Translations under genes and position numbers: made by a program | Shown: positions 1 through 14,454 of the stretch, in pieces | How the letters are laid out: every line of letters starts with the position of its first letter | How positions within the stretch are numbered: position 1 is the stretch's first letter | Virus record (IMG/VR): IMGVR_UViG_2703718804_000009 | Direction: 5' to 3' (one strand) | DNA: 38,798 bases | DNA from: a virus | Lineage: Duplodnaviria; Heunggongvirae; Uroviricota; Caudoviricetes | The notes under the pieces: model-generated | Seen by the model: only the letters and a program-made list of their open reading frames with translations | Databases searched by the model: none | What the model was told of the DNA's origin: nothing

Positions 1-2373
1 GTCATCAAGTGCATTATGGCGCTCACCTTCGAATGGAATAGCCGTTCTGGCATCGAAGTCTATGGCTTTCCCCAGCTCAACGATTGTGCGTACATCGCGA
101 TCGTTGTAGTAACGCCACGGGCAGGGGATCCCCTGCCGTTCGTATGAACGGCGCAAAATCGTGTTGTCGAAGTTGGCTCCATTTCCCCAGACCTGAACAA
201 AAAATTCACCGGAGTTTTCGTCGATAAATTCCCGCAATTGTAACAGTGCATCATCTAACGGGATTTCATCGGTCATAATGGCAGATTGCGCTTCGCGTGA
301 TTGCTTAAGCCACCATTTAATGGTGTCCCGATCAATGACTCCGCCAGCAGTTTCCAGATCGATAGTCTTACTAAATTCCGGTCCCATATCTCCGGTTTGC
401 GGATCGAAAAATATTGCACCTATTGAGATGATCGGGGCATCAGGATTTTTTCCCATGGTTTCAAGGTCGATCATTAGATGGTCACACGTCCTGCTGGTGG
501 ATGTGATTTCGTGATGACCGTTCACCTTAATTGAGTGATCTGCCGTCTCGCCAGTTTTATTATCGCTGGCGTGATGCTGATTGCCGCCAGGGTTCTCCTT
601 GTGTGGATGTTCAGCGCCTTCCATTTCCTCCGGATCATTTTCCTGAACTTCAACCTGATTCTCTTCATCGAATGTTTCCTGGTATGTTGCGTCGCCCATC
701 ACCGCGCCACAATCAGGGCAGTTGCCGCCACCGCTCTGACCGCAGGCGGTGCAGACTTTTTCCGGTTCCTGTTGCGCTACTGGTTCGGATTGTTTCGTTT
801 CTGGCTCGTTTTGTAACGCATTTGGGCTGTTTTGTTCCGCTTTTTGGTCGTTCCGTTCCGATTCATGCTGGTTCTGGTTCACAGAATCGCGAGTCTGGAT
901 CCCCTTGACCCATTTCGGATCATTAGGGTCGCTAATCCCCTCAACAAATTCACCACGCGATACAGCAAGTAACTTATCGGCGTCAGGCTGGCTGATATTG
1001 GCTGCCTGCATAATTTTGTTTACTTCGTCAGCGGTGACTTTTACTTGGTTAGCGGAACTCACCTGCGACTGAGCATCCAGCGACTGCGCGTTCTGGCCAT
1101 GTTCAGTTGTATCCGGTTCCATTGTTTCAGTTGTTGCCTGTTCACCTGCCATTGCGTCAGATGGTTGTGGTTTTTCTTCTTCTGTTTCACGCTCAGTAAC
1201 CACCTCGCGGTTAATTTCTTCCAGGATATCTTTTTCCGGCGTATGCCGGGCAGCTGTGAGAGTTTCCTTGCTGGGGTTCTCGTGATCAGTTTCCGTCAAA
1301 TAGGCGTTGATATACCCCTGAAGGCGTCCCGGGTAGTGATAAAATTCAGGGTGTGCGCTTCGGATAAGTGCAAAAATAGCGGCGCGGGAATAGTCCAGAA
1401 TACCCGGGGTTGCACGAAGTGCTGCGGACCATTCTTTGAACGGACTTTCTTTGTTCAGGACTACTTCTTTTGCGCGACGATAAACGCTGCCCGGAATTTC
1501 ATAAATATTAAAATCCATCGGAAGTGTGGCTGCTGCAATCTCCACATCCAGTGTGTCGAGGGTGTGTACTAAATTCGGATTGCGATCGGTTTTGTTCCCA
1601 CCGCCAGCATTAGCACCGGAAGCCGTGCGGGTGATGCGTGAAACACGATTTCCTTTCATCCACTCTTTTGTCAGCAGACCCCGATCAGTGTAGTCAGCGT
1701 CCAGGTATGCTTCGAAAAAAGCAGTTATTAGTCCCAGGTCTGAATTACCAGGATTAGGGAAAACTTTGTCAGTGTCACGAACCAGTTTGTGGAGGTCGCG
1801 AATCTCCAGCGAGTCGAGCAGACTGGTTTTATGCGAAATAGCCAGGGCAGTAACAGCCGGTAGTTCTTCAGCCCGTGCAATGTGTAATGCCTGGAGTTCG
1901 TCGCGTGAAACGTGCGTTACTGGTTTTTCGCTGCCGTGTTGAGCAAGCCAACGAATGGGCAGTTCCTGACCGGAGACAGGCAGAAGCATGCTCTCCTCAA
2001 TCTCAGTCATGTCTTCGCCGTTGATGTTGGTATTGTCAGTGCTGGCTGGTTTGTCCTGAACAGAGGGGGAAGGGCCGATAAATGTCATTGTGATGCCATC
2101 TTTCCCGCCTTTTTCATAGCGGTTGCAGAATTCAGTATCAAACACGCCTTCTGGCGGAAGGTCGTCAACAACGGGCAAATTGACGCGGACGGGTTTTTTA
2201 AAGTCGTCTTCATCATAATCGTTGTCATCCATTGCGGTAATGCAGCGGGAGATTGCAACAGATAATTTTTTTGCTGTAGTCCAGTAAAAACCACCTTTAA
2301 TTCCCAGGCGTTTTCTTACTTTGTCATTTTTTGCTTCGCAATATAGTGCAAATTCTTCTTTATCAGTGCTCAT
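1..2373 (-). CDS. RecE-like exonuclease (exodeoxyribonuclease VIII family) with C-terminal DEDD-type 3'-5' exonuclease-like motifs; 3' end runs off the window
   Basis: Minus-strand frame open for about 791 codons from the ATG at 2373 to the window edge with no stop (so it is absent from the ORF track). Translation begins [11 protein letters not shown], contains [10 protein letters not shown] and DYSRA motifs recalled from Rac RecE, and ends with an IDLET...HNALDD exonuclease signature. Sits at the distal end of the leftward operon. Confidence 0.7.
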
Positions 2374-2466: not shown

Positions 2467-2655
2467 TTAAAATCCTGCCGGGATTTCGTTATCCTGGTGA
2501 ATAACTTTATCGACCGGATAACAGTTGCCTGGAATTTTCTGTTCGGTTGCTGCTGCCATACATTCCTGCATTGTTCTGTGAACACTGACTGCAATATCAA
2601 CTGGCTCTCCGGAAACAAGAAAAACCGTCAGAATAAGTGCAAATACTGGATTCAT
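2467..2655 (-). CDS. ydfD: YdfD-like small protein (62 aa) with N-terminal hydrophobic/signal segment
   Basis: Internal Met of track ORF 2467..2709; MNPVFALILTVFLVSG N-terminus; start overlaps the dicB stop (ATGA); AT-rich; position directly after dicB as in the Qin dicB operon (from memory). Confidence 0.55.
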   Translation of the reverse strand: MNPVFALILTVFLVSGEPVDIAVSVHRTMQECMAAATEQKIPGNCYPVDKVIHQDNEIPAGF

Positions 2656-2840
2656 TGTGCACATCCTTTTGGCATCAGACGTAAACGGGCCAGCATTGAA
2701 ACAATGCATACTTTATTTAATAACTCCCGTTCGTGTTTTCTTTTGTTAATGGCCTCTTCAGTGAATACAGGATTACTGATAGTGACACCAATTTCAAAAC
2801 AACCTTCAGACGTATTAACGTTTGGTAATAACGTTTTCAT
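2652..2840 (-). CDS. dicB: DicB cell-division inhibitor (62 aa)
   Basis: Internal Met of track ORF 2652..2945; MKTLLPNVNTSEGCFEIGVTISNPVFTEEAINKRK...LARLRLMPKGCAQ matches recalled DicB; GAGG Shine-Dalgarno 9 nt upstream; lies immediately downstream of DicF. Confidence 0.75.
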   Translation of the reverse strand: MKTLLPNVNTSEGCFEIGVTISNPVFTEEAINKRKHERELLNKVCIVSMLARLRLMPKGCAQ

Positions 2841-3009
2841 TATCGCGCCCTCAACAATGAGTTTTGTGATGCGGTGCCTGGTGCCTCCAGGTGACGTTAA
2901 CCAGTTAACAATTAACGCCGGATACAGAGAATCCACCCATAACACTGTTTTTGGTTTTAACTGTTCCGCGTGCGCTTAGCCGCATTCACCGCATCACAAA
3001 ATTCACTTT

Positions 3010-3067
3010 AAAAATGGCGGCAGAGCAGTCACGGAGTAAAACTGATACCGCCAAACGTCACCAGAAA
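3010..3067 (-). ncRNA. dicF: DicF small RNA (ftsZ-targeting sRNA of the dicB operon)
   Basis: Reverse complement of 3010-3067 reads TTTCTGGTGACGTTTGGCGGTATCAGTTTTACTCCGTGACTGCTCTGCCGCC followed by a U-run, matching the DicF sequence as I recall it; located between the ydfC-like gene and dicB. Confidence 0.75.
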
Positions 3068-3401
3068 ATTGATAACAGAGGGCGTTGCAGCGGGGTTGTC
3101 ACTTAAGCGTATGGTCAACCTGACAACCCGGTGTCCTCAACGGGGAAGGAATAACCCCGCCATACTTACCGCCGCGCCATTTCGCGGAGTGCCACAACCG
3201 GAAGCGCACGGTCGACGAAAATTTAACGACAGGCTATCTATGAACCAGCTACCTCGCCGTGCGCTTTCGCGTTATGGTCTGACTTTTCAGGGAAATATCC
3301 TTTCAGTAAACTGTCAGTGCCGGATGCTCACCCGTGTCCGGCGCACGTACTCCACCTCACCCGTGGAGAACTCCTTAATCACCAACCCTCAGGAGGGTGA
3401 A

Positions 3402-3677
3402 ATGTCGACTGAAAATGATGAAATCATTAACTCCCTGATACGCCAAATTAATAATTTTGATAAAGCATTGCAGCATGCTGCGGCGCGTAGTGATATAACT
3501 CTTTTAGCAATTTCATTTCTTGCATCTGTTATGGATAAAAATGAAGTCGTACGACAGAGTCTTGTTGATTATATCGACTCGCTTCAACCCGGCACTTTCA
3601 ATCATGAGAGCTTCAATCATGAGAAAGAGCATGTTAAGTCTGTAATTAATTCTCTTATTTTGAATCAAAAGAATTAA
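3402..3677 (+). CDS. hypothetical protein (91 aa), rightward gene embedded in the leftward operon
   Basis: ATG at 3402 with strong SD (AGGAGGG) 5-7 nt upstream; AT-rich coding sequence; the upstream in-frame extension in track ORF 3069..3677 is GC-rich, Arg-rich and not protein-like. Confidence 0.45.
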   Translation: MSTENDEIINSLIRQINNFDKALQHAAARSDITLLAISFLASVMDKNEVVRQSLVDYIDSLQPGTFNHESFNHEKEHVKSVINSLILNQKN

Positions 3678-3975
3678 TGCTTTTTGTTGCAAAGTAATTT
3701 TCAAGGGGTTCTATTCGAATCCCTTTCTTTTTCATTAACAAGCCAAACCCCTTATCAATGATGTCCATTAGATCCAGGAAGTATTTTTCATGTAAATCCT
3801 GGTTATCAGAGAGCTGCTTCTCTTCGTACAGACCGATAAAGGCACGACGCACGTTACCGGATATAGTATCGATGGTTTCTTTTTCTACGGTACTCAGGTC
3901 AAGAGTCGCCAGTTGGGAACGAACTATATTCGCTGCCATTTCCTGGAATTGCATTGGTAAATCTTTAAATTCCAT
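3655..3975 (-). CDS. hypothetical protein (106 aa)
   Basis: Track ORF; GAGG SD about 8 nt upstream of the ATG at 3975; 22 bp downstream of the ydfC-like stop; 3' end overlaps the convergent 3402..3677 ORF by 23 bp. Confidence 0.55.
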   Translation of the reverse strand: MEFKDLPMQFQEMAANIVRSQLATLDLSTVEKETIDTISGNVRRAFIGLYEEKQLSDNQDLHEKYFLDLMDIIDKGFGLLMKKKGIRIEPLENYFATKSINSFDSK

Positions 3976-3997
3976 TATTAGCCTCGTTGGTTAGCTA

Positions 3998-4216
3998 TTA
4001 ACGCGGGTATGTAATCATTCTGGCAATGCTTAATGCCGCTGCTTTTTCCAGCCTGGTGATATCCTGCTCCAGAGCGGACAGATTTTCAGCCTGCTTAACC
4101 CTGGCTTCATTAGCCCATTTCAGATCCTGCGCTGCATTAATTTTCTGGCGCATCCACTCATAAAGTTCATCATCGGTATAGTCTGGCGCGATGATGACGG
4201 GTTCTCGTTTCTGCAT
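3998..4216 (-). CDS. YdfC-like small protein (72 aa)
   Basis: Track ORF; size and position match ydfC of the Qin dicB operon (from memory). Confidence 0.55.
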   Translation of the reverse strand: MQKREPVIIAPDYTDDELYEWMRQKINAAQDLKWANEARVKQAENLSALEQDITRLEKAAALSIARMITYPR

Positions 4217-4245
4217 ACTGATTCCTCGCGGTGCTGCTTCGCTTA

Positions 4246-4374
4246 TCAGCCGTTAGATTTTGCCGAGCTGGAAAGCGCCTGTTTAAACTCACTGAAGCTG
4301 AGAGCTTCTTCGCCTTCGGCAAGGCCTTCGAAGTATTCTTCGTAAGCCTTTTCCATGATTGTGTCGAAATCCAT
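4246..4374 (-). CDS. YdfB-like small acidic protein (42 aa)
   Basis: Hand-translated: MDFDTIMEKAYEEYFEGLAEGEEALSFSEFKQALSSSAKSNG; AGGTGA SD upstream; start overlaps the stop of the upstream ydfA-like gene; below the 60-aa cutoff of the ORF track. Confidence 0.5.
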   Translation of the reverse strand: MDFDTIMEKAYEEYFEGLAEGEEALSFSEFKQALSSSAKSNG

Positions 4375-4375
4375 A

Positions 4376-4531
4376 TCACTCACCTGAGTTTCTTTCCAGC
4401 CAGCGACGGGCACCATTTTCGGTTTTAAACGTTTTGCTTTTGGTATACGTCATCGCGGTGAATGTGCCGTCCTGGTTGGGAAACACGCCGTACACCAGAG
4501 ATTCGTTGTTGCCAAGATCGATAGTATCCAT
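4376..4531 (-). CDS. YdfA-like small protein (51 aa); alternative upstream start at 4612 would give 78 aa
   Basis: Internal Met of track ORF 4376..4612 (MDTIDLGNNESLVYGVF...); first gene of the leftward operon downstream of the candidate pL. Confidence 0.5.
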   Translation of the reverse strand: MDTIDLGNNESLVYGVFPNQDGTFTAMTYTKSKTFKTENGARRWLERNSGE

Positions 4532-4713
4532 GCTGACCTCATTTCCCCTTAACGCCGGGGTAGCGGAACAAAAACCTGCTGCATAGTTATTAAAGTTGAA
4601 CCCTGCCGTCATGTTCTTACGCCTCGGGCTGGCTACTTAACCCCTGACCACTGCCTGGTAACTCGAAGTATTGCCCTGCATTCTGTGGGGCGGGTGGGTT
4701 GGTATGCCGTTAA

Positions 4714-4729
4714 GGTAACAAGAGTTACC
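4714..4729. promoter_or_regulatory. candidate OL operator: perfect palindrome GGTAAC-N4-GTTACC, within a candidate pL (-35 TTGACT on the minus strand at 4735-4740)
   Basis: GGTAACAAGAGTTACC read directly; the same half-site arrangement recurs at 5526-5539 on the other side of cI. Confidence 0.45.
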
Positions 4730-4775
4730 TTTCGAGTCAATACGATGTTGCAAAAGGTACATTTGAGAGCGTGAA

Positions 4776-4800
4776 AAACCCGCAATGAATGCGGGTTCTG
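4776..4800 (-). terminator. candidate intrinsic terminator downstream of cI
   Basis: 7-bp GC-rich stem (ACCCGCA/TGCGGGT) with a 5-nt loop, followed on the minus strand by TTTTC; lies immediately 3' of the cI stop. Confidence 0.35.
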
Positions 4801-4802
4801 AC

Positions 4803-5519
4803 TCAGTCTAAGTATTGATGTATTTGTGAAACTTTACCTTTAATGGTGTAACCACCATTCAGTTCGATGGGTTTGTAAAGCGGATTCAGTGACAACAGAT
4901 AGATGTTTGGTCCGTCAATCGCAACTTTTTTTAGTGTTACGTTTGGCGTTCCTTCCAATTGGATTAAGATTATTTTTCCCACCAGTTCTCTAATGTTACT
5001 TGAGCATGGTGTGATCAGCACGGTAGATCCATCGGGGATGGTTGGGAGGCCGTTAGAGTTTGTCATCGCATCTCCCTCAACATGCAATAAAAAAGAGTTT
5101 TCAGCGGTTTTTGTCATGACATCAACCCAATTCTTAATGCCAGGAATCTCGGTTACTGGACAACTCATATCCCAATAACCAGCCTGTTCCCACGTTAAAA
5201 CGGGCAACCGGGCGATGTTGTCACTAATGTAAAGATACTGATTCAGACGCAGATCATCGGTTTTATCGTGACCGTCCTTTCCATAAAGAATCCATTCAGG
5301 AGATTTGGAAAGCAATTTTGACAGTAGATGCAAATTCTCACCGTCAGGTTTTGAAGAGCCATTTTCCCATTTTGTTACGGATACACGAGATATGCCGATT
5401 GCTTTCGCAACCTGCTGTTGGGTTAATCCAACGTCTTTTCGACGATTCCGAATACGTTCGCTGATAGTGTTTTTCATGTAACCAATGTTACTACCAAGTG
5501 ATGTTGCTATGGTTGACAT
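4803..5519 (-). CDS. cI: CI-type prophage repressor (HTH plus LexA/S24-like autocleavage domain)
   Basis: Track ORF 4803..5576; XRE-type HTH (LTQQQVAKAIGISRVSVTKWENG) and a C-terminal S24 peptidase-like region; divergent from the cro-like gene. Start is ambiguous (5519 MSTIATS or 5477 MKNTISER); the mRNA may be leaderless. Confidence 0.8.
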   Translation of the reverse strand: MSTIATSLGSNIGYMKNTISERIRNRRKDVGLTQQQVAKAIGISRVSVTKWENGSSKPDGENLHLLSKLLSKSPEWILYGKDGHDKTDDLRLNQYLYISDNIARLPVLTWEQAGYWDMSCPVTEIPGIKNWVDVMTKTAENSFLLHVEGDAMTNSNGLPTIPDGSTVLITPCSSNIRELVGKIILIQLEGTPNVTLKKVAIDGPNIYLLSLNPLYKPIELNGGYTIKGKVSQIHQYLD

Positions 5520-5541
5520 TGCTATGTAACTATTGTTACCC
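5513..5541 (+). promoter_or_regulatory. candidate pR/OR: consensus -35 TTGACA (5513-5518) followed by operator palindrome GTAAC-N4-GTTAC (5526-5539)
   Basis: Read directly from the sequence; the -10 element is weak or ambiguous; the region sits between divergent cI and cro-like genes. Confidence 0.4.
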
Positions 5542-5568
5542 TCCTGCTCGAAATAACAGGAGAGTTTT

Positions 5569-5784
5569 ATGTTCAAAGATGATGTTCTGCGCTATTTCAA
5601 AAAAAAGCGACTAGTAGCTGAGGCTCTTGGAATTTCACATGTGGCTGTTGTGCGGTGGAAAGCAGTTATTCCCAAACTTCGCGCAATGGAACTGGATGAA
5701 ATTACTAACGGTGAATTGAAATACAACCCAGAACTTTACAAGAAGCAGGATAGCACCTCGAACGAAGGAAAGAATGATTCATGA
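5569..5784 (+). CDS. Cro-like HTH regulator (DicC/YdaS family)
   Basis: Track ORF; 71 aa; divergent from cI; AGGAGAG SD; resembles DicC/YdaS-type Cro proteins (from memory). Confidence 0.65.
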   Translation: MFKDDVLRYFKKKRLVAEALGISHVAVVRWKAVIPKLRAMELDEITNGELKYNPELYKKQDSTSNEGKNDS

Positions 5785-6206
5785 AAATCAAGCATGAACA
5801 CATCCGCATGGCGATGAATGCCTGGGCGCATCCGGACGGCGAAAAAGTACCGGCTGCGAAAATTACCAAAGCGTATTTCGAGCTGGGAATGACGTTCCCG
5901 GAACTGTATGACGACAGCCATCCGGAAGCCCTGGCTCGCAATACCCAGAAAATTTTCCGCTGGGTAGAGAAAGACACCCCTGATGCAGTTGAAAAAATTC
6001 AGGCGTTGTTACCAGCGATCGAAAAGGCAATGCCACCTTTGCTGGTGGCCAGAATGCGCAGCCACAGTTCAGCTTATTTTCGGGAGTTGGTGGAGACGCG
6101 GGAGCGACTGGTGAGAGACGCTGATGATTTTGTCGCAGTGGCAATCGCCGGTTTCAATCAGATGAACCGTGGTGGCCCGGCAGGAAATGCTGTGGCAGTA
6201 CATTGA
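5781..6206 (+). CDS. YdaT-like protein (CII-analogue position)
   Basis: Track ORF; MKIKHEHI N-terminus typical of YdaT as recalled; ATGA overlap with the cro-like stop. Confidence 0.55.
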   Translation: MKIKHEHIRMAMNAWAHPDGEKVPAAKITKAYFELGMTFPELYDDSHPEALARNTQKIFRWVEKDTPDAVEKIQALLPAIEKAMPPLLVARMRSHSSAYFRELVETRERLVRDADDFVAVAIAGFNQMNRGGPAGNAVAVH

Positions 6207-6277
6207 CTGACAATAGCCATATCGAATCGCTTCCGGCAACTCGTGAGTAAAAAGATTCGGTATCAGAAGAGGTGAGT

Positions 6278-7348
6278 ATGGCTAACGCCTGGCTCAGATT
6301 ATGGCATGACATGCCAAATGACCCTAAGTGGCGAACAATTGCCAGGGTGTCAGGGCAGCCAATTGCAACAGTGATGGCAGTGTATATCCACCTCCTGGTG
6401 AGCGCGTCACGAAATGTCACGCGAGGTCACATTGATGTCACGACAGAAGATTTGGCAAGTGCGCTCGACGTGACAGAAGAGGTAATTGATTCAATTTTGC
6501 AGACGATGCAGGGGCGGGTACTTGATGGTGATTTAATCACTGGATGGGAAAAACGCCAGGTGCTTAAAGAGGACAACGGCAATATTTCGCAAACCGCAAA
6601 ATCTCCTGCAGAGCGCAAGAGGGCGCAGCGAGAGAGGGAAAGAAAGCGGGAACAAAATGGCGATTGTCACGGCGCGTCACGAAATGTCACGCACATGTCA
6701 CGACGAGTCACGACAGATAAAGATACAGATAAAGATACAGATCAAGAAGATCAAAACACTATGGTCCATGGCGTAAAAAACGCCACGAACCAGGCAGGGG
6801 ATGTTCAGACCGTCAATCTTGGTCAGCCAGCAGGCACGACACCGGAAGCCGATTCAGCGTATGCGCTGAAAGCCGATTCGGGCGCTGTGCAGCAGGTGAT
6901 GACCGCAAGGCCGGAGCAATCACACCAACTGCAGCAGCCTGAAGCCGATTCCGCCATTCAGCGGGAAGCCGATCGGGTAGTCCCGGAAAACACCGGGCAG
7001 CCTGTGGGACGAGTGGATTATCCGGATGTGTTCGAACAGGTCTGGCGGGAATACCCGTTGCGTGCTGGGGCAAACCCGAAGAAATCCGCTTTCAGTGCTT
7101 GGAAGGCCAGATTACGCGAGGGGGTGTCACCAGAGGCCATGCTGGATGGCGTGAGGCGTTACGCAAGATACCTTGCGGCTACCGGGAAAACGGGAACGGA
7201 ATTTGTTCAGCGAGCGACGACGTTTTTTGGACCGGACCGGAATTTTGAAAACCCCTGGCTGCTCCCGGTAAGCGGCACGAACAACCAGCGTTGTGTGAAT
7301 CATATTTCTGAACCGGATACCGAAATTCCACCGGGCTTCAGGGGGTAA
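6278..7348 (+). CDS. replication initiation protein (lambda O-like replisome organizer)
   Basis: Track ORF 6272..7348; N-terminus MANAWLRLWHDMPNDPKWR resembles phage replisome-organizer N-terminal domains; iteron arrays embedded in the coding sequence; GAGGTGA SD before the ATG at 6278. Confidence 0.65.
   Translation: MANAWLRLWHDMPNDPKWRTIARVSGQPIATVMAVYIHLLVSASRNVTRGHIDVTTEDLASALDVTEEVIDSILQTMQGRVLDGDLITGWEKRQVLKEDNGNISQTAKSPAERKRAQRERERKREQNGDCHGASRNVTHMSRRVTTDKDTDKDTDQEDQNTMVHGVKNATNQAGDVQTVNLGQPAGTTPEADSAYALKADSGAVQQVMTARPEQSHQLQQPEADSAIQREADRVVPENTGQPVGRVDYPDVFEQVWREYPLRAGANPKKSAFSAWKARLREGVSPEAMLDGVRRYARYLAATGKTGTEFVQRATTFFGPDRNFENPWLLPVSGTNNQRCVNHISEPDTEIPPGFRG
6406..6441. repeat. iteron array 1: four GTCAC(G) repeats at about 10-bp phasing
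   Basis: GTCAC at 6406, 6416, 6426 and 6437, read directly. Confidence 0.6.
6666..6735. repeat. iteron array 2 (five GTCAC(G) repeats at 10-11 bp phasing) followed by tandem ACAGATAAAGAT x2; candidate origin of replication
   Basis: GTCAC at 6666, 6676, 6686, 6697 and 6707; tandem 12-mers at 6712-6735; architecture resembles lambda ori inside the O gene. Confidence 0.55.
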
Positions 7349-7388
7349 GTGTTGATTTCTGGTCATGAGGTAATTTTCAGGAGGACTT

Positions 7389-10303: not shown

Positions 10304-10631
10304 AAACAGAAACAACAATTGCCGTTACCTGTTGTTACCATGGCAAGTAAACGTATCTCAGGCGAGCGCATTGCGCCGTTCTGACGCAGATAAATTAGCC
10401 TGGATAGAAGGTGCTGGCAATAAAAAATAGCGTTTTCTTATCGGTGTCGGTAAGATTGCTGCGGGTGCTTGAGGCTGTCTGCCTCAGGCATGCCACTGTA
10501 AGGCAGACAGAGAAAAGCCCCAGTTAACATTACGCGTCCGGCAAGACGCTTAACATTAATCTGAGGCTCAATCTATGAACGGCAAATCTAGGTTAGCCTC
10601 TTACGCGCCGAAAGGCAAGGAGAAGCAGGCT

Positions 10632-10787
10632 ATGAAGCAGCAAAAGGCGATGTTAGTCGCCCTGATCGTCATCTGTATTACCGTCATTGTGACGGCACTG
10701 GTAACGAGGAAAGACCTCTGCGAGGTACGAATCCGAACCGGCCAGACGGAGGTCACTGTCTTCACAGCTTACGAACCTGAGGAGTAA
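10632..10787 (+). CDS. hokD: Hok/Gef-family type I toxin (51 aa), near-identical to HokD/RelF as recalled
   Basis: MKQQKAMLVALIVICITVIVTALVTRKDLCEVRIRTGQTEVTVFTAYEPEE; AAGGAG SD 9 nt upstream; structured leader; an in-frame upstream ATG at 10575 gives the 70-aa track ORF. Confidence 0.85.
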   Translation: MKQQKAMLVALIVICITVIVTALVTRKDLCEVRIRTGQTEVTVFTAYEPEE

Positions 10788-14143: not shown

Positions 14144-14219
14144 CGGCCCTTTAGCTCAGTGGTGAGAGCGAGCGACTCATAATCGCCAGGTCGCTGGTTC
14201 AAATCCAGCAAGGGCCACC
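14144..14219 (+). tRNA. tRNA with CAT anticodon, most similar to tRNA-Ile2 (lysidine, AUA-decoding; ileX/ileZ-like); tRNA-Met not excluded
   Basis: Hand-folded cloverleaf: 7-bp acceptor stem, GCTC/GAGC D-stem, CTCATAA anticodon loop, perfect T-arm (GCTGG TTCAAAT CCAGC), CCA end. Confidence 0.7.
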
Positions 14220-14220
14220 A

Positions 14221-14297
14221 ACCGCCACTAGCTCATCAGGAAAGAGCGTCAACCCTTTAAGTTGAGTGTGCGAGGTTCGAGTCCCCGGTGGCGGTCC
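14221..14297 (+). tRNA. tRNA-like gene, atypical; predicted anticodon UUU (Lys) with C at position 33 and one T-stem mismatch; possible pseudo-tRNA
   Basis: Hand-folded: 7-bp acceptor stem (CCGCCAC/GTGGCGG), D-stem GCTC/GAGC, anticodon stem TCAAC/GTTGA with loop CCTTTAA, TTCGAGT T-loop, CCA end. Confidence 0.4.
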
Positions 14298-14299
14298 AG

Positions 14300-14375
<76 letters not shown>

Positions 14376-14378
14376 ATA

Positions 14379-14454
<76 letters not shown>

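Follow-up and report, generated by a model that had tools for sequence, protein, structure and literature searches.

The DNA examined here, a 38,798-nt stretch of IMG/VR record IMGVR_UViG_2703718804_000009 (Caudoviricetes; hereafter the window), raises the question of whether its minus strand at 3010-3067 encodes DicF, the small RNA that targets ftsZ, and whether the genes around it keep an ancestral form of a division-inhibition module, as a preliminary description of the locus proposed. The first part can be addressed directly. In a whole-window scan, the Rfam family for DicF (RF00039) matches 3066..3015 on the minus strand at 73.4 bits (gathering score 48, E 1.6e-14), a score far beyond chance, and the match spans the full model (positions 1-52 of 52). 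Alignment to dicF of K-12 MG1655 (b1574) places the 53-nt RNA at 3067..3015 on the minus strand with 52 of 53 bases the same. Thus, the interval first described consists of DicF plus the five-T tail of its terminator (3014-3010), and its assignment to DicF holds, the covariance score being well above threshold and the comparison with K-12 revealing no substantial mismatch. The sole difference is the base just before the U-run, which is C in K-12, A here, and G in phage Tritos, and which is unpaired in the Rfam structure. The elements in and around the RNA are the following:

3015..3067, minus strand: DicF small RNA (Rfam RF00039 and K-12 alignment).
3010..3053, minus strand: intrinsic terminator of DicF with its U-run at 3014-3010 (RNAfold and Rfam consensus structure).
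3077..3204, minus strand: LE, a conserved structured leader RNA of about 128 nt that forms the 5' part of the 190-nt DicF precursor (covariation, RNAalifold, and covariance model).
3192..3277, minus strand: long hairpin, the presumed RNase III substrate for the 5' end of the 190-nt precursor (RNAfold and sequence conservation with K-12).
2862..3001, minus strand: structured spacer between dicF and dicB (RNAfold, -59.2 kcal/mol).

The 3' end of DicF folds into an interrupted 13-bp stem (3053-3046 with 3022-3015, and 3044-3040 with 3030-3026) followed by U5, at -17.5 kcal/mol in an RNAfold prediction of 3008-3070, and the Rfam consensus structure concurs. In K-12, the single-stranded 5' part of DicF pairs with xylR and pykA, and the hairpin and 3' part pair with the ribosome-binding site of ftsZ (Balasubramanian et al., 2016, PMC5069750). 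The residues reported to pair with ftsZ, xylR, and pykA are all as in K-12 (Balasubramanian et al., 2016). Pairing of DicF with the ftsZ leader was predicted by RNAduplex at -39 kcal/mol, a modest result in that 19 of 500 mononucleotide shuffles scored better and the query was one base off (3066..3014).

In K-12, DicF derives from the polycistronic dicBp transcript, in which RNase III sets the 5' end of a 190-nt species by cutting 137 nt 5' of the DicF start, and RNase E sets the 5' end of the 53-nt species; terminated and read-through transcripts both occur (Ragunathan et al., 2023, PMC10448788). Transferred to the window, the RNase III cut falls at position 3204, within a predicted 10-bp helix of the long hairpin (3266-3257 with 3211-3202, by RNAfold). 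The second helix of this hairpin (3277-3271 with 3198-3192) competes with P0, the closing helix of LE. What is conserved with K-12 near the processing cuts is sequences and hairpins only. The spacer between dicF and dicB has its ends joined by a long-range helix of 15 bp (3001-2987 with 2876-2862) and gives a sub-threshold match to Rfam STnc100 (2863-3003; 38.8 bits, threshold 47); by analogy with the K-12 literature, it is likely an RNase III processing site for read-through transcripts.

The second step is the operon in which this RNA is embedded. The early-left genes of the window are the following:

4531..4376, minus strand: ydfA (Pfam DUF1391, phrog match, and PGAP name in a relative).
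4374..4246, minus strand: ydfB (phrog match and PGAP name in a relative).
4216..3998, minus strand: ydfC (phrog match and PGAP name in a relative).
3655..3975, minus strand: ORF106, an extra gene of 106 aa from a phage family without known function (phrog_6937, E 2.9e-69).
3402..3677, plus strand: ORF91, an opposite-strand open reading frame of 91 aa (open reading frame list, Shine-Dalgarno sequence, and hairpin).
2652..2840, minus strand: dicB, a division inhibitor of 62 aa (Pfam PF05358 over its full length, E 5.7e-39).
2467..2655, minus strand: ydfD-like gene of 62 aa (DUF1482, Pfam PF07358, E 1.2e-24).
1..2373, minus strand: exonuclease gene (Pfam Exonuc_VIII and Rv2179c-like domains).

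On the minus strand, the order is thus cI-type repressor, terminator, promoter-like region, ydfA, ydfB, ydfC, ORF106, the DicF region, dicB, ydfD, and the exonuclease gene. The Pfam matches confirm the 62-aa DicB and the 62-aa YdfD-like product that had been placed after DicF; the ATG of the ydfD-like gene overlaps the stop codon of dicB, and E. coli genomes with a 100% identical locus (an identical stretch of 1,051 bp) carry the PGAP label dicB. The ydfA, ydfB, and ydfC genes (spanning 3998..4531 on the minus strand) match phrog_751, phrog_2061, and phrog_1744. DicF therefore lies between ydfC and dicB of a lambdoid operon of the dicB type, with two extra open reading frames on the ydfC side. 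These two form an insert of about 600 bp without counterpart in K-12 Qin and phage Tritos. A strong Shine-Dalgarno sequence (AGGAGG) and a terminator-like hairpin of its own (3703-3725) accompany ORF91, which looks like an insert of the moron type. Searches of Pfam, PHROGs, PADLOC, and NCBIfam returned no match informative on the function of ORF106, and none at all for ORF91.

Upstream of these genes lies the immunity region, with the following elements:

4803..5519, minus strand: cI-type repressor (HTH_3, E 2.5e-16, and Peptidase_S24, E 1.3e-16).
4712..4740, minus strand: putative pL-type promoter region (sequence and shared operator).
5476..5540: two operators in the cI/cro interval, at 5476-5491 and 5526-5540, that fit GTAAC-N4/5-GTTAC (repeat search).
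5569..5784, plus strand: cro-type gene (P22_Cro, Pfam PF14549, E 2.9e-16).
5781-6206, plus strand: YdaT/CII-like gene (phrog_163).

The last two genes are divergent from cI. Next to the operon, the operator GGTAACTCTTGTTACC, a palindrome at 4729-4714, adjoins a candidate pL -35 hexamer (TTGACT, 4740-4735). This palindrome matches both of the palindromes between cI and cro, and the stretch 4714-4728 forms an inverted repeat, at 93% complementarity, with 5526-5540 there. The candidate -10 hexamer is weak (TACCTT), and a promoter consensus scan did not report it. These elements make up a putative promoter of the pL type near 4735. The pL-type context claimed in the preliminary description is supported by the -35 hexamer and by the operator common to the pL and cI/cro regions, and is a reasonable reading of the operon given that the element is a near-complete lambdoid prophage.

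The same description took the gene upstream of the operon to be a full cI repressor. The protein (238 aa according to PGAP in relatives, or 224 aa with the ATG at 5477 as start; its gene has a terminator at 4800-4775) aligns with lambda cI (3bdn) across aa 11-217 and has both the HTH_3 and the S24 domain, so the claim stands for the domains. The Ala-Gly cleavage site is kept (EQAGYW, against VQAGMF in lambda), and so is the catalytic Lys (TLKKV, against TFKKL in lambda). However, the catalytic Ser (lambda Ser149, in the motif G-x-S-M) is replaced by Ala: lambda cI has EGNSM and the protein here EGDAM, with the codon GCG. EGDAM is also found in an ST131 strain, and the O55:H7 DEC5A allele of the repressor (95% nucleotide identity) has EGDSM. 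A Ser-to-Ala change at the nucleophile position abolishes self-cleavage in LexA and lambda cI; with this nucleophile lost, the repressor is probably not RecA-inducible. Judged by its sequence, it has a full-length fold but is probably not a self-cleaving repressor. This immunity type is present in 722 of 5,426 complete E. coli genomes. A search of phage databases gave no close relative, the best match to the repressor in a sequenced phage being 43.5%.

At the other end of the operon, the first 791 of the 813 codons of the exonuclease gene lie in the window, and the gene passes the window edge (its full length is taken from a near-identical prophage). It had been described as RecE-like, which is correct for the non-catalytic N-terminal region only. 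That region matches Pfam Exonuc_VIII (PF06630, aa 57-189, E 1.7e-35), and the protein is 58.6% identical to Rac RecE by blastp, over RecE aa 50-591 only. The catalytic domain of RecE (about the last 260 aa of the 866-aa Rac protein) is absent, the alignment ending at RecE aa 591; the C-terminus is instead a Rv2179c-like DEDD 3'-5' exonuclease domain (PF16473, aa 632-791, E 1.1e-60). The protein also falls below the NCBIfam RecE equivalog NF007259 (942.8 against 1269 bits, covering profile positions 1-602 of 877 only), and since the 22 missing codons are too few, the gap in score is not due to the end of the window. In Rac, recT directly follows recE, whereas the 99.9% identical prophage has no recT after the exonuclease gene; a DUF4224 gene and an integrase gene come next, so the operon does not end in the exonuclease as had been proposed. 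The possibility that K-12 ydfE is a truncated remnant of this exonuclease was considered and rejected, there being no protein or DNA similarity.

The window as a whole is nearly a complete lambdoid prophage. Outside the immunity region (about 4707-7380), it shares 99.6-99.9% identity with a prophage that sits between tRNA-Ser and yccA in E. coli QA-1986 630; that prophage has a different immunity region. It carries genes for terminase, portal, capsid, tail, lysis, Q, and replication, with the DUF4224 gene and the integrase gene past the left end of the window. We are therefore highly confident that 3067..3015 on the minus strand is a functional copy of DicF in an early-left operon of the dicBF type, in an E. 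coli lambdoid prophage at tRNA-Ser/yccA, and that derepression would lead to division arrest by DicF and DicB. Sequence identity, RNA family, gene order, terminator, and the processing hairpins conserved from K-12 are direct observations, and confidence that DicF would be produced on derepression comes from the presence of all elements of its biogenesis in K-12.

For the processing steps, the repression of targets, and the activity of the promoter, we infer from K-12 experiments the following course of events. Once the cI-type repressor leaves its operator, transcription would start from the pL-type promoter near 4735 and cross ydfA, ydfB, ydfC, and ORF106 into the structured non-coding stretch. 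RNase III would then cut the long hairpin at about 3204, giving the precursor of about 190 nt, RNase E would cut at 3068/3067 to form the 5' end of the 53-nt DicF, and the intrinsic terminator (3053-3010) would set its 3' end. Some polymerases would pass the terminator into dicB, ydfD, the exonuclease gene, and then the integration genes beyond the window. DicF with Hfq would pair with the ftsZ ribosome-binding site and block FtsZ synthesis, its 5' part would repress xylR and pykA, and DicB would inhibit division via MinC, so that the RNA and the protein would jointly arrest host division on derepression. The insert of about 600 bp with its opposite-strand gene might reduce the transcription that reaches DicF, and it is doubtful what would trigger derepression, as the Ser-to-Ala change in the repressor leaves no evident inducing signal.

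Several distinct prophages contain dicF along with parts of its operon, and O157:H7 has more than one copy (Balasubramanian et al., 2016, PMC5069750). DicF is also annotated in the isolated phage Tritos, and it scores above the Rfam threshold both there and in vB_EcoS-689R5, an isolated phage with no DicF annotation in its record. Among complete E. coli genomes, 4,739 of 5,426 have dicBF-related sequence; the median genome has it at two places and the richest at ten. The presence of DicF in several lambdoid phages, functional and inducible ones included, is thus already published and annotated, and both the element correctly identified here and its type of setting were known before. Taken as stated, the finding adds little, since DicF has been published together with its processing, its targets, and the several prophage contexts, inducible phages among them, in which it occurs. 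Its value is one of annotation: PGAP leaves dicF unmarked in the record of a near-identical genome, and the labels "exodeoxyribonuclease VIII" and "LexA family" mask a domain swap and a lost catalytic serine.

The region with DicF is long, structured, and non-coding, and its leader, LE, is a separate observation that could outweigh the main DicF finding in importance. LE is made up of helix P0 (3198-3192 with 3090-3084), stem A (3187-3183 with 3176-3172), stem B (about 3159-3141), and stem C (3130-3121 with 3101-3091), with a candidate pseudoknot of 6 bp (3165-3160 with 3114-3109). Stem B is variable in sequence, and a hairpin with a C/U-rich loop is kept at this place across many sequences. 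An alignment of 19 diverse homologues (A2) supports P0, A, C, and possibly the pseudoknot: pairing holds in 96.6% of cells, whereas sliding the partners leaves no more than 55.6%, and nine pairs show compensatory changes, against 1.7 in shuffles. For the pseudoknot, one position only covaries, the sampling pattern having fixed most of both strands. RNAalifold independently finds P0, A, and C. A covariance model of LE (R1) scores 143.6 bits in the window, where LE is single-copy, and the next best score in an unfiltered search of the whole window is 10.7 bits. No Rfam family corresponds to LE: a search to E 5 gave DicF, the sub-threshold STnc100 match, and noise. Short ATG-initiated frames were rejected as an explanation for its conservation as coding sequence because single-base indels in stem B break the frames among close relatives.

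LE is not confined to DicF loci. In a distant blastn search, the region upstream of DicF matched many phages that have no DicF (P1, P7, cdtI, Stx2c phages, 2H10, Ayreon, and a Salmonella phage), and pattern scans added 120 more viral contigs as well as genomes of Citrobacter, Serratia symbiotica, Trabulsiella, Erwinia tracheiphila, and Izhakiella. The covariance model also placed LE ahead of kil in another phage and ahead of dicB in DEC5A, neither locus having DicF, and found none in K-12 Rac (next to kilS) or HK022. At all 134 of the 134 loci examined, a short spacer separates LE from a candidate terminator, which is recognized by its T-run; most representatives of the 17 sequence clusters fold as a GC-rich hairpin ahead of the T-run. 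At least 12 sequence types follow LE, and DicF is the commonest of them (82 of 134 loci).

What LE does can be read in more than one way. It is possible, if short of probable, that LE is a scaffold for processing and stability only, positioning the RNase III and RNase E cuts and protecting the precursor with no effect on transcription. In the 190-nt precursor, LE falls exactly in the interval from the mapped RNase III site to the RNase E site, the 5' strand of P0 can instead lengthen the RNase III hairpin, and the variable 3' cassettes resemble small RNA modules in which a single-stranded seed is followed by a terminator. However, a pseudoknotted fold of four helices with near-invariant loops, kept from P1 to Erwinia, is more than the positioning of RNases usually requires, and the LE copies of P1 and cdtI lack the upstream RNase III hairpin found here.

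More tentatively, and rather against the balance of probability, LE may represent a class of phage cis-regulatory RNA not described before, with DicF as one exchangeable cassette of a modular system of leader plus small RNA. The element, with four helices and possibly a pseudoknot, is conserved in early repressor-controlled operons of lambdoid phages, P1, and prophages of at least six Enterobacterales genera, where it may decide between a stop, yielding a small RNA such as DicF, and continuation into genes for division inhibition, recombination, and integration. If LE does control termination, this would explain early-left expression past a strong terminator in phages without a recognized N protein, and it would also explain the high variability of DicF-like hairpins.

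In another reading, which we consider unlikely, the DicF hairpin would be chiefly a regulated stop and LE a cis-acting antiterminator or attenuator, with ftsZ targeting as a secondary function gained by one variant. In its favor are the covariation behind the LE structure, the occurrence of LE without DicF (in the P1 ban leader, the pL leaders of cdtI and Stx2c phages, the kil phage, and Citrobacter, Serratia, Trabulsiella, Erwinia, and Izhakiella), and the candidate terminators of at least 12 sequence types after LE in all 134 loci. In P1, LE and a strong terminator lie between the C1-controlled promoter Pban and every gene of the ban operon; the tRNA genes, tciABC, and ban have a single annotated promoter, upstream of both, so read-through must occur there. 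K-12 displays both terminated and read-through transcripts, and Pfam and PHROGs recognized no N-like gene in the early-left operon. Conversely, the window has one copy of LE and none after pR, unlike nut and put sites, LE has no sequence similarity to HK022 put, and the spacing between promoter and LE is not constant, ranging between about 25 nt (P1) and about 1.5 kb (the window). An alternative pairing that LE might form with the 3' arm of the terminator is not conserved in P1. A related model, in which the LE segment GGCGGUA of the minimum-free-energy fold mimics an antiterminator by competing with the 5' arm of the terminator, was dropped because this pairing is conserved neither in P1 nor in a cassette of the GGUGG type.

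Weakest of all is the reading of the preliminary description that the locus keeps the ancestral division-inhibition module and that K-12 Qin is its decayed remnant: the core order ydfABC-dicF-dicB-ydfD in a near-complete prophage with a two-domain repressor and an integrase past the window fits it, as do the IS2 insertion and downstream pseudogenes of K-12 Qin, but we regard it as quite unlikely, because K-12 ydfE is unrelated to the exonuclease (homology between window and K-12 stops at about 2382, at the exonuclease start codon), the insert of about 600 bp is in the window and not in K-12, immunity regions have been exchanged between near-identical prophages, the repressor here has lost its catalytic serine, and other dicB operons have cassettes other than DicF. 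Given this mosaic exchange among the regions, no single arrangement can be called ancestral on present evidence.

Returning to LE as a possible cis-regulatory leader, its closest functional analogy is HK022 put, likewise a structured RNA in an early phage operon, before terminators, and with no recognized N protein. The put RNA is about 70 nt long, has two stem-loops, and is present as putL and putR (PMC9378689), whereas LE is about 128 nt long, has four helices, and occurs once in the window. Homology between the two was considered and rejected: a blastn search (word size 7) of the entire HK022 genome gave a best E of 0.11, elsewhere in the genome. The second LE copy on the pR side that nut or put sites would lead one to expect did not appear in an unfiltered covariance search of the whole window. 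LE thus lacks two of the three defining features of put, namely likeness in sequence or structure and one copy per early promoter. For the third, suppression of later terminators by an RNA bound to RNA polymerase, the observations are of context: a terminator follows LE throughout, and the genes beyond it depend on the promoter upstream. Nothing relevant was found in the literature on dicF together with put or antitermination.

A second comparison concerns phage P1. Its so-called dicF-like region (AF234173, 68472-68573) overlaps the P1 copy of LE (R1, 95.4 bits) and contains no DicF sequence, as it has no Rfam DicF match. The P1 LE lies about 25 nt downstream of Pban, carries compensatory changes in the pseudoknot as well as in stems B and C, and is followed by a terminator unrelated to that of DicF. 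Work by Faubladier and Bouche in 1994 may already describe sequences related to dicF.

The Rac prophage and phage lambda likewise encode an inhibitor of host division in the early-left operon (kilS-kilR and Kil), although the sequences are unrelated; KilR acts directly on FtsZ. In Rac, a small RNA gene lies just upstream of the inhibitor, and opposite-strand sieB interrupts the operon as ORF91 does here, yet the covariance model finds no LE.

The closest likenesses are with Qin and with other dicBF prophages. K-12 Qin (Kim) has the same DicF (52 of 53 bases), terminator, 190-nt precursor region, and RNase III hairpin, and the same neighbors, with ydfA, ydfB, and ydfC lying upstream of dicF and both dicB and ydfD lying downstream. 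However, Qin is cryptic and the prophage here is near-complete with an S24 repressor (HTH plus S24, where K-12 DicA corresponds to the HTH part only), and ydfD is followed here by the large exonuclease gene and in K-12 by ydfE and IS2. Some dicBF phages lack the insert of ORF106 and ORF91. Tritos, vB_EcoS-689R5, PPompW, and others are 97-99% identical to the window in the shared parts and differ from it in the immunity region; together with the O157:H7 prophages (PMC5069750), these three phages also have DicF, dicB, ydfD, and the same type of exonuclease in an early-left operon controlled by cI and cro.

The DicF position of the window (3010-3076, minus strand) is, judged by sequence comparison across loci, a variable cassette that follows a conserved leader RNA. 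The leader, a structured and conserved RNA of ~128 nt (window 3077-3204, minus strand), abuts the 5' side of DicF and is present in a single copy in the window. It is predicted to fold into four helices with a candidate pseudoknot, a structure supported by covariation, and no Rfam family was found for it. Among phages, homologues are found within the P1 ban leader and within the pL leaders of cdtI and Stx2c phages, and in another phage the homologue sits upstream of kil. Bacterial genomes carrying a homologue belong to Citrobacter, Serratia, Trabulsiella, Erwinia and Izhakiella.

The cassette of the window was compared with those of other loci (L005 2623-2675, L004 1610-1660, L130, L134, L142, L144 and L145, among others). 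In all 134 loci examined the layout 3' of the leader RNA is the same: a short single-stranded stretch and then a candidate terminator, consisting of a T-run with, in most cassette types, a GC-rich hairpin predicted just before it. The sequences at this position are of at least 12 kinds, DicF being the one found in 82 of the 134 loci; some cassettes retain the DicF 5' seed alone and others the DicF 3' half alone, and the Rfam DicF model has no match to the non-DicF cassettes. Distant versions from Serratia (L134), Trabulsiella (L142), Erwinia (L144) and Izhakiella (L145), together with locus L050, have a long terminator hairpin 3' of the leader RNA. Within this hairpin lie AGGAG and an ATG (ATGTTCTACCG...), and the reading frame that starts at the ATG spans the 3' arm of the hairpin and the U-run; such a frame might couple translation to termination.

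In the near-identical prophage of E. coli QA-1986 630 (L001, from NZ_CP101920.1), the Rfam DicF model scores 73.4 bits at L001 9385-9436, and the RefSeq annotation of that prophage has no dicF ncRNA. The spacer between dicF and dicB contains a predicted domain with a 15-bp closing helix, and gives a sub-threshold match (38.8 bits; threshold 47) to the Salmonella sRNA family STnc100 (window 2863-3003, minus strand). Upstream of dicF and next to ydfC, comparison with K-12 Qin and with phage Tritos reveals an insert of ~600 bp (window 3391-3997), with the following features:

ORF106, operon strand: 106 aa, phrog_6937
ORF91, 3402-3677, strand opposite to the operon: 91 aa, strong Shine-Dalgarno sequence
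3703-3725: terminator-like hairpin, ORF91's own

ORF91 has no family match in Pfam, PHROGs, PADLOC or NCBIfam.

The window and the QA-1986 630 prophage are 99.6-99.9% identical except in their immunity and early-replication regions (window 4707-7380). This segment, the sole part that differs, is a clear-cut case of module exchange. The immunity type of the window is found in 722 of 5,426 complete E. coli genomes. In its cI-type repressor (4803-5519, minus strand), the S24 peptidase motif reads EGDAM, with Ala (codon at ~5077-5075) at the position of the catalytic Ser, an allele shared with an ST131 strain, whereas O55:H7 DEC5A has EGDSM; the EGDAM repressor is probably naturally non-self-cleaving. 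Two further features lie on the plus strand:

10463-10637, plus strand: sok antitoxin RNA (110.7 bits)
14145-14451, plus strand: a tandem array of four tRNA genes, preceding the lysis genes

The related genome has an annotated hokD.

The gene at window 1-2373 (minus strand), usually labelled 'exodeoxyribonuclease VIII', is by its domain composition a chimera: the N-terminal ~600 aa, those of RecE (58.6% identity), are joined to an Rv2179c-like domain (Pfam), a 3'-5' exonuclease domain of the DEDD type, which replaces the RecE catalytic domain. No recT lies downstream of this gene in the near-identical prophage. In K-12 Rac, the position of sieB resembles that of ORF91. Rac also has an annotated small RNA, kilS (L146 7406-7503), directly 5' of kilR, the gene of an FtsZ inhibitor. 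This is the same relative placement as that of DicF before dicB, although kilS is unrelated to DicF in sequence and Rac lacks the leader element.
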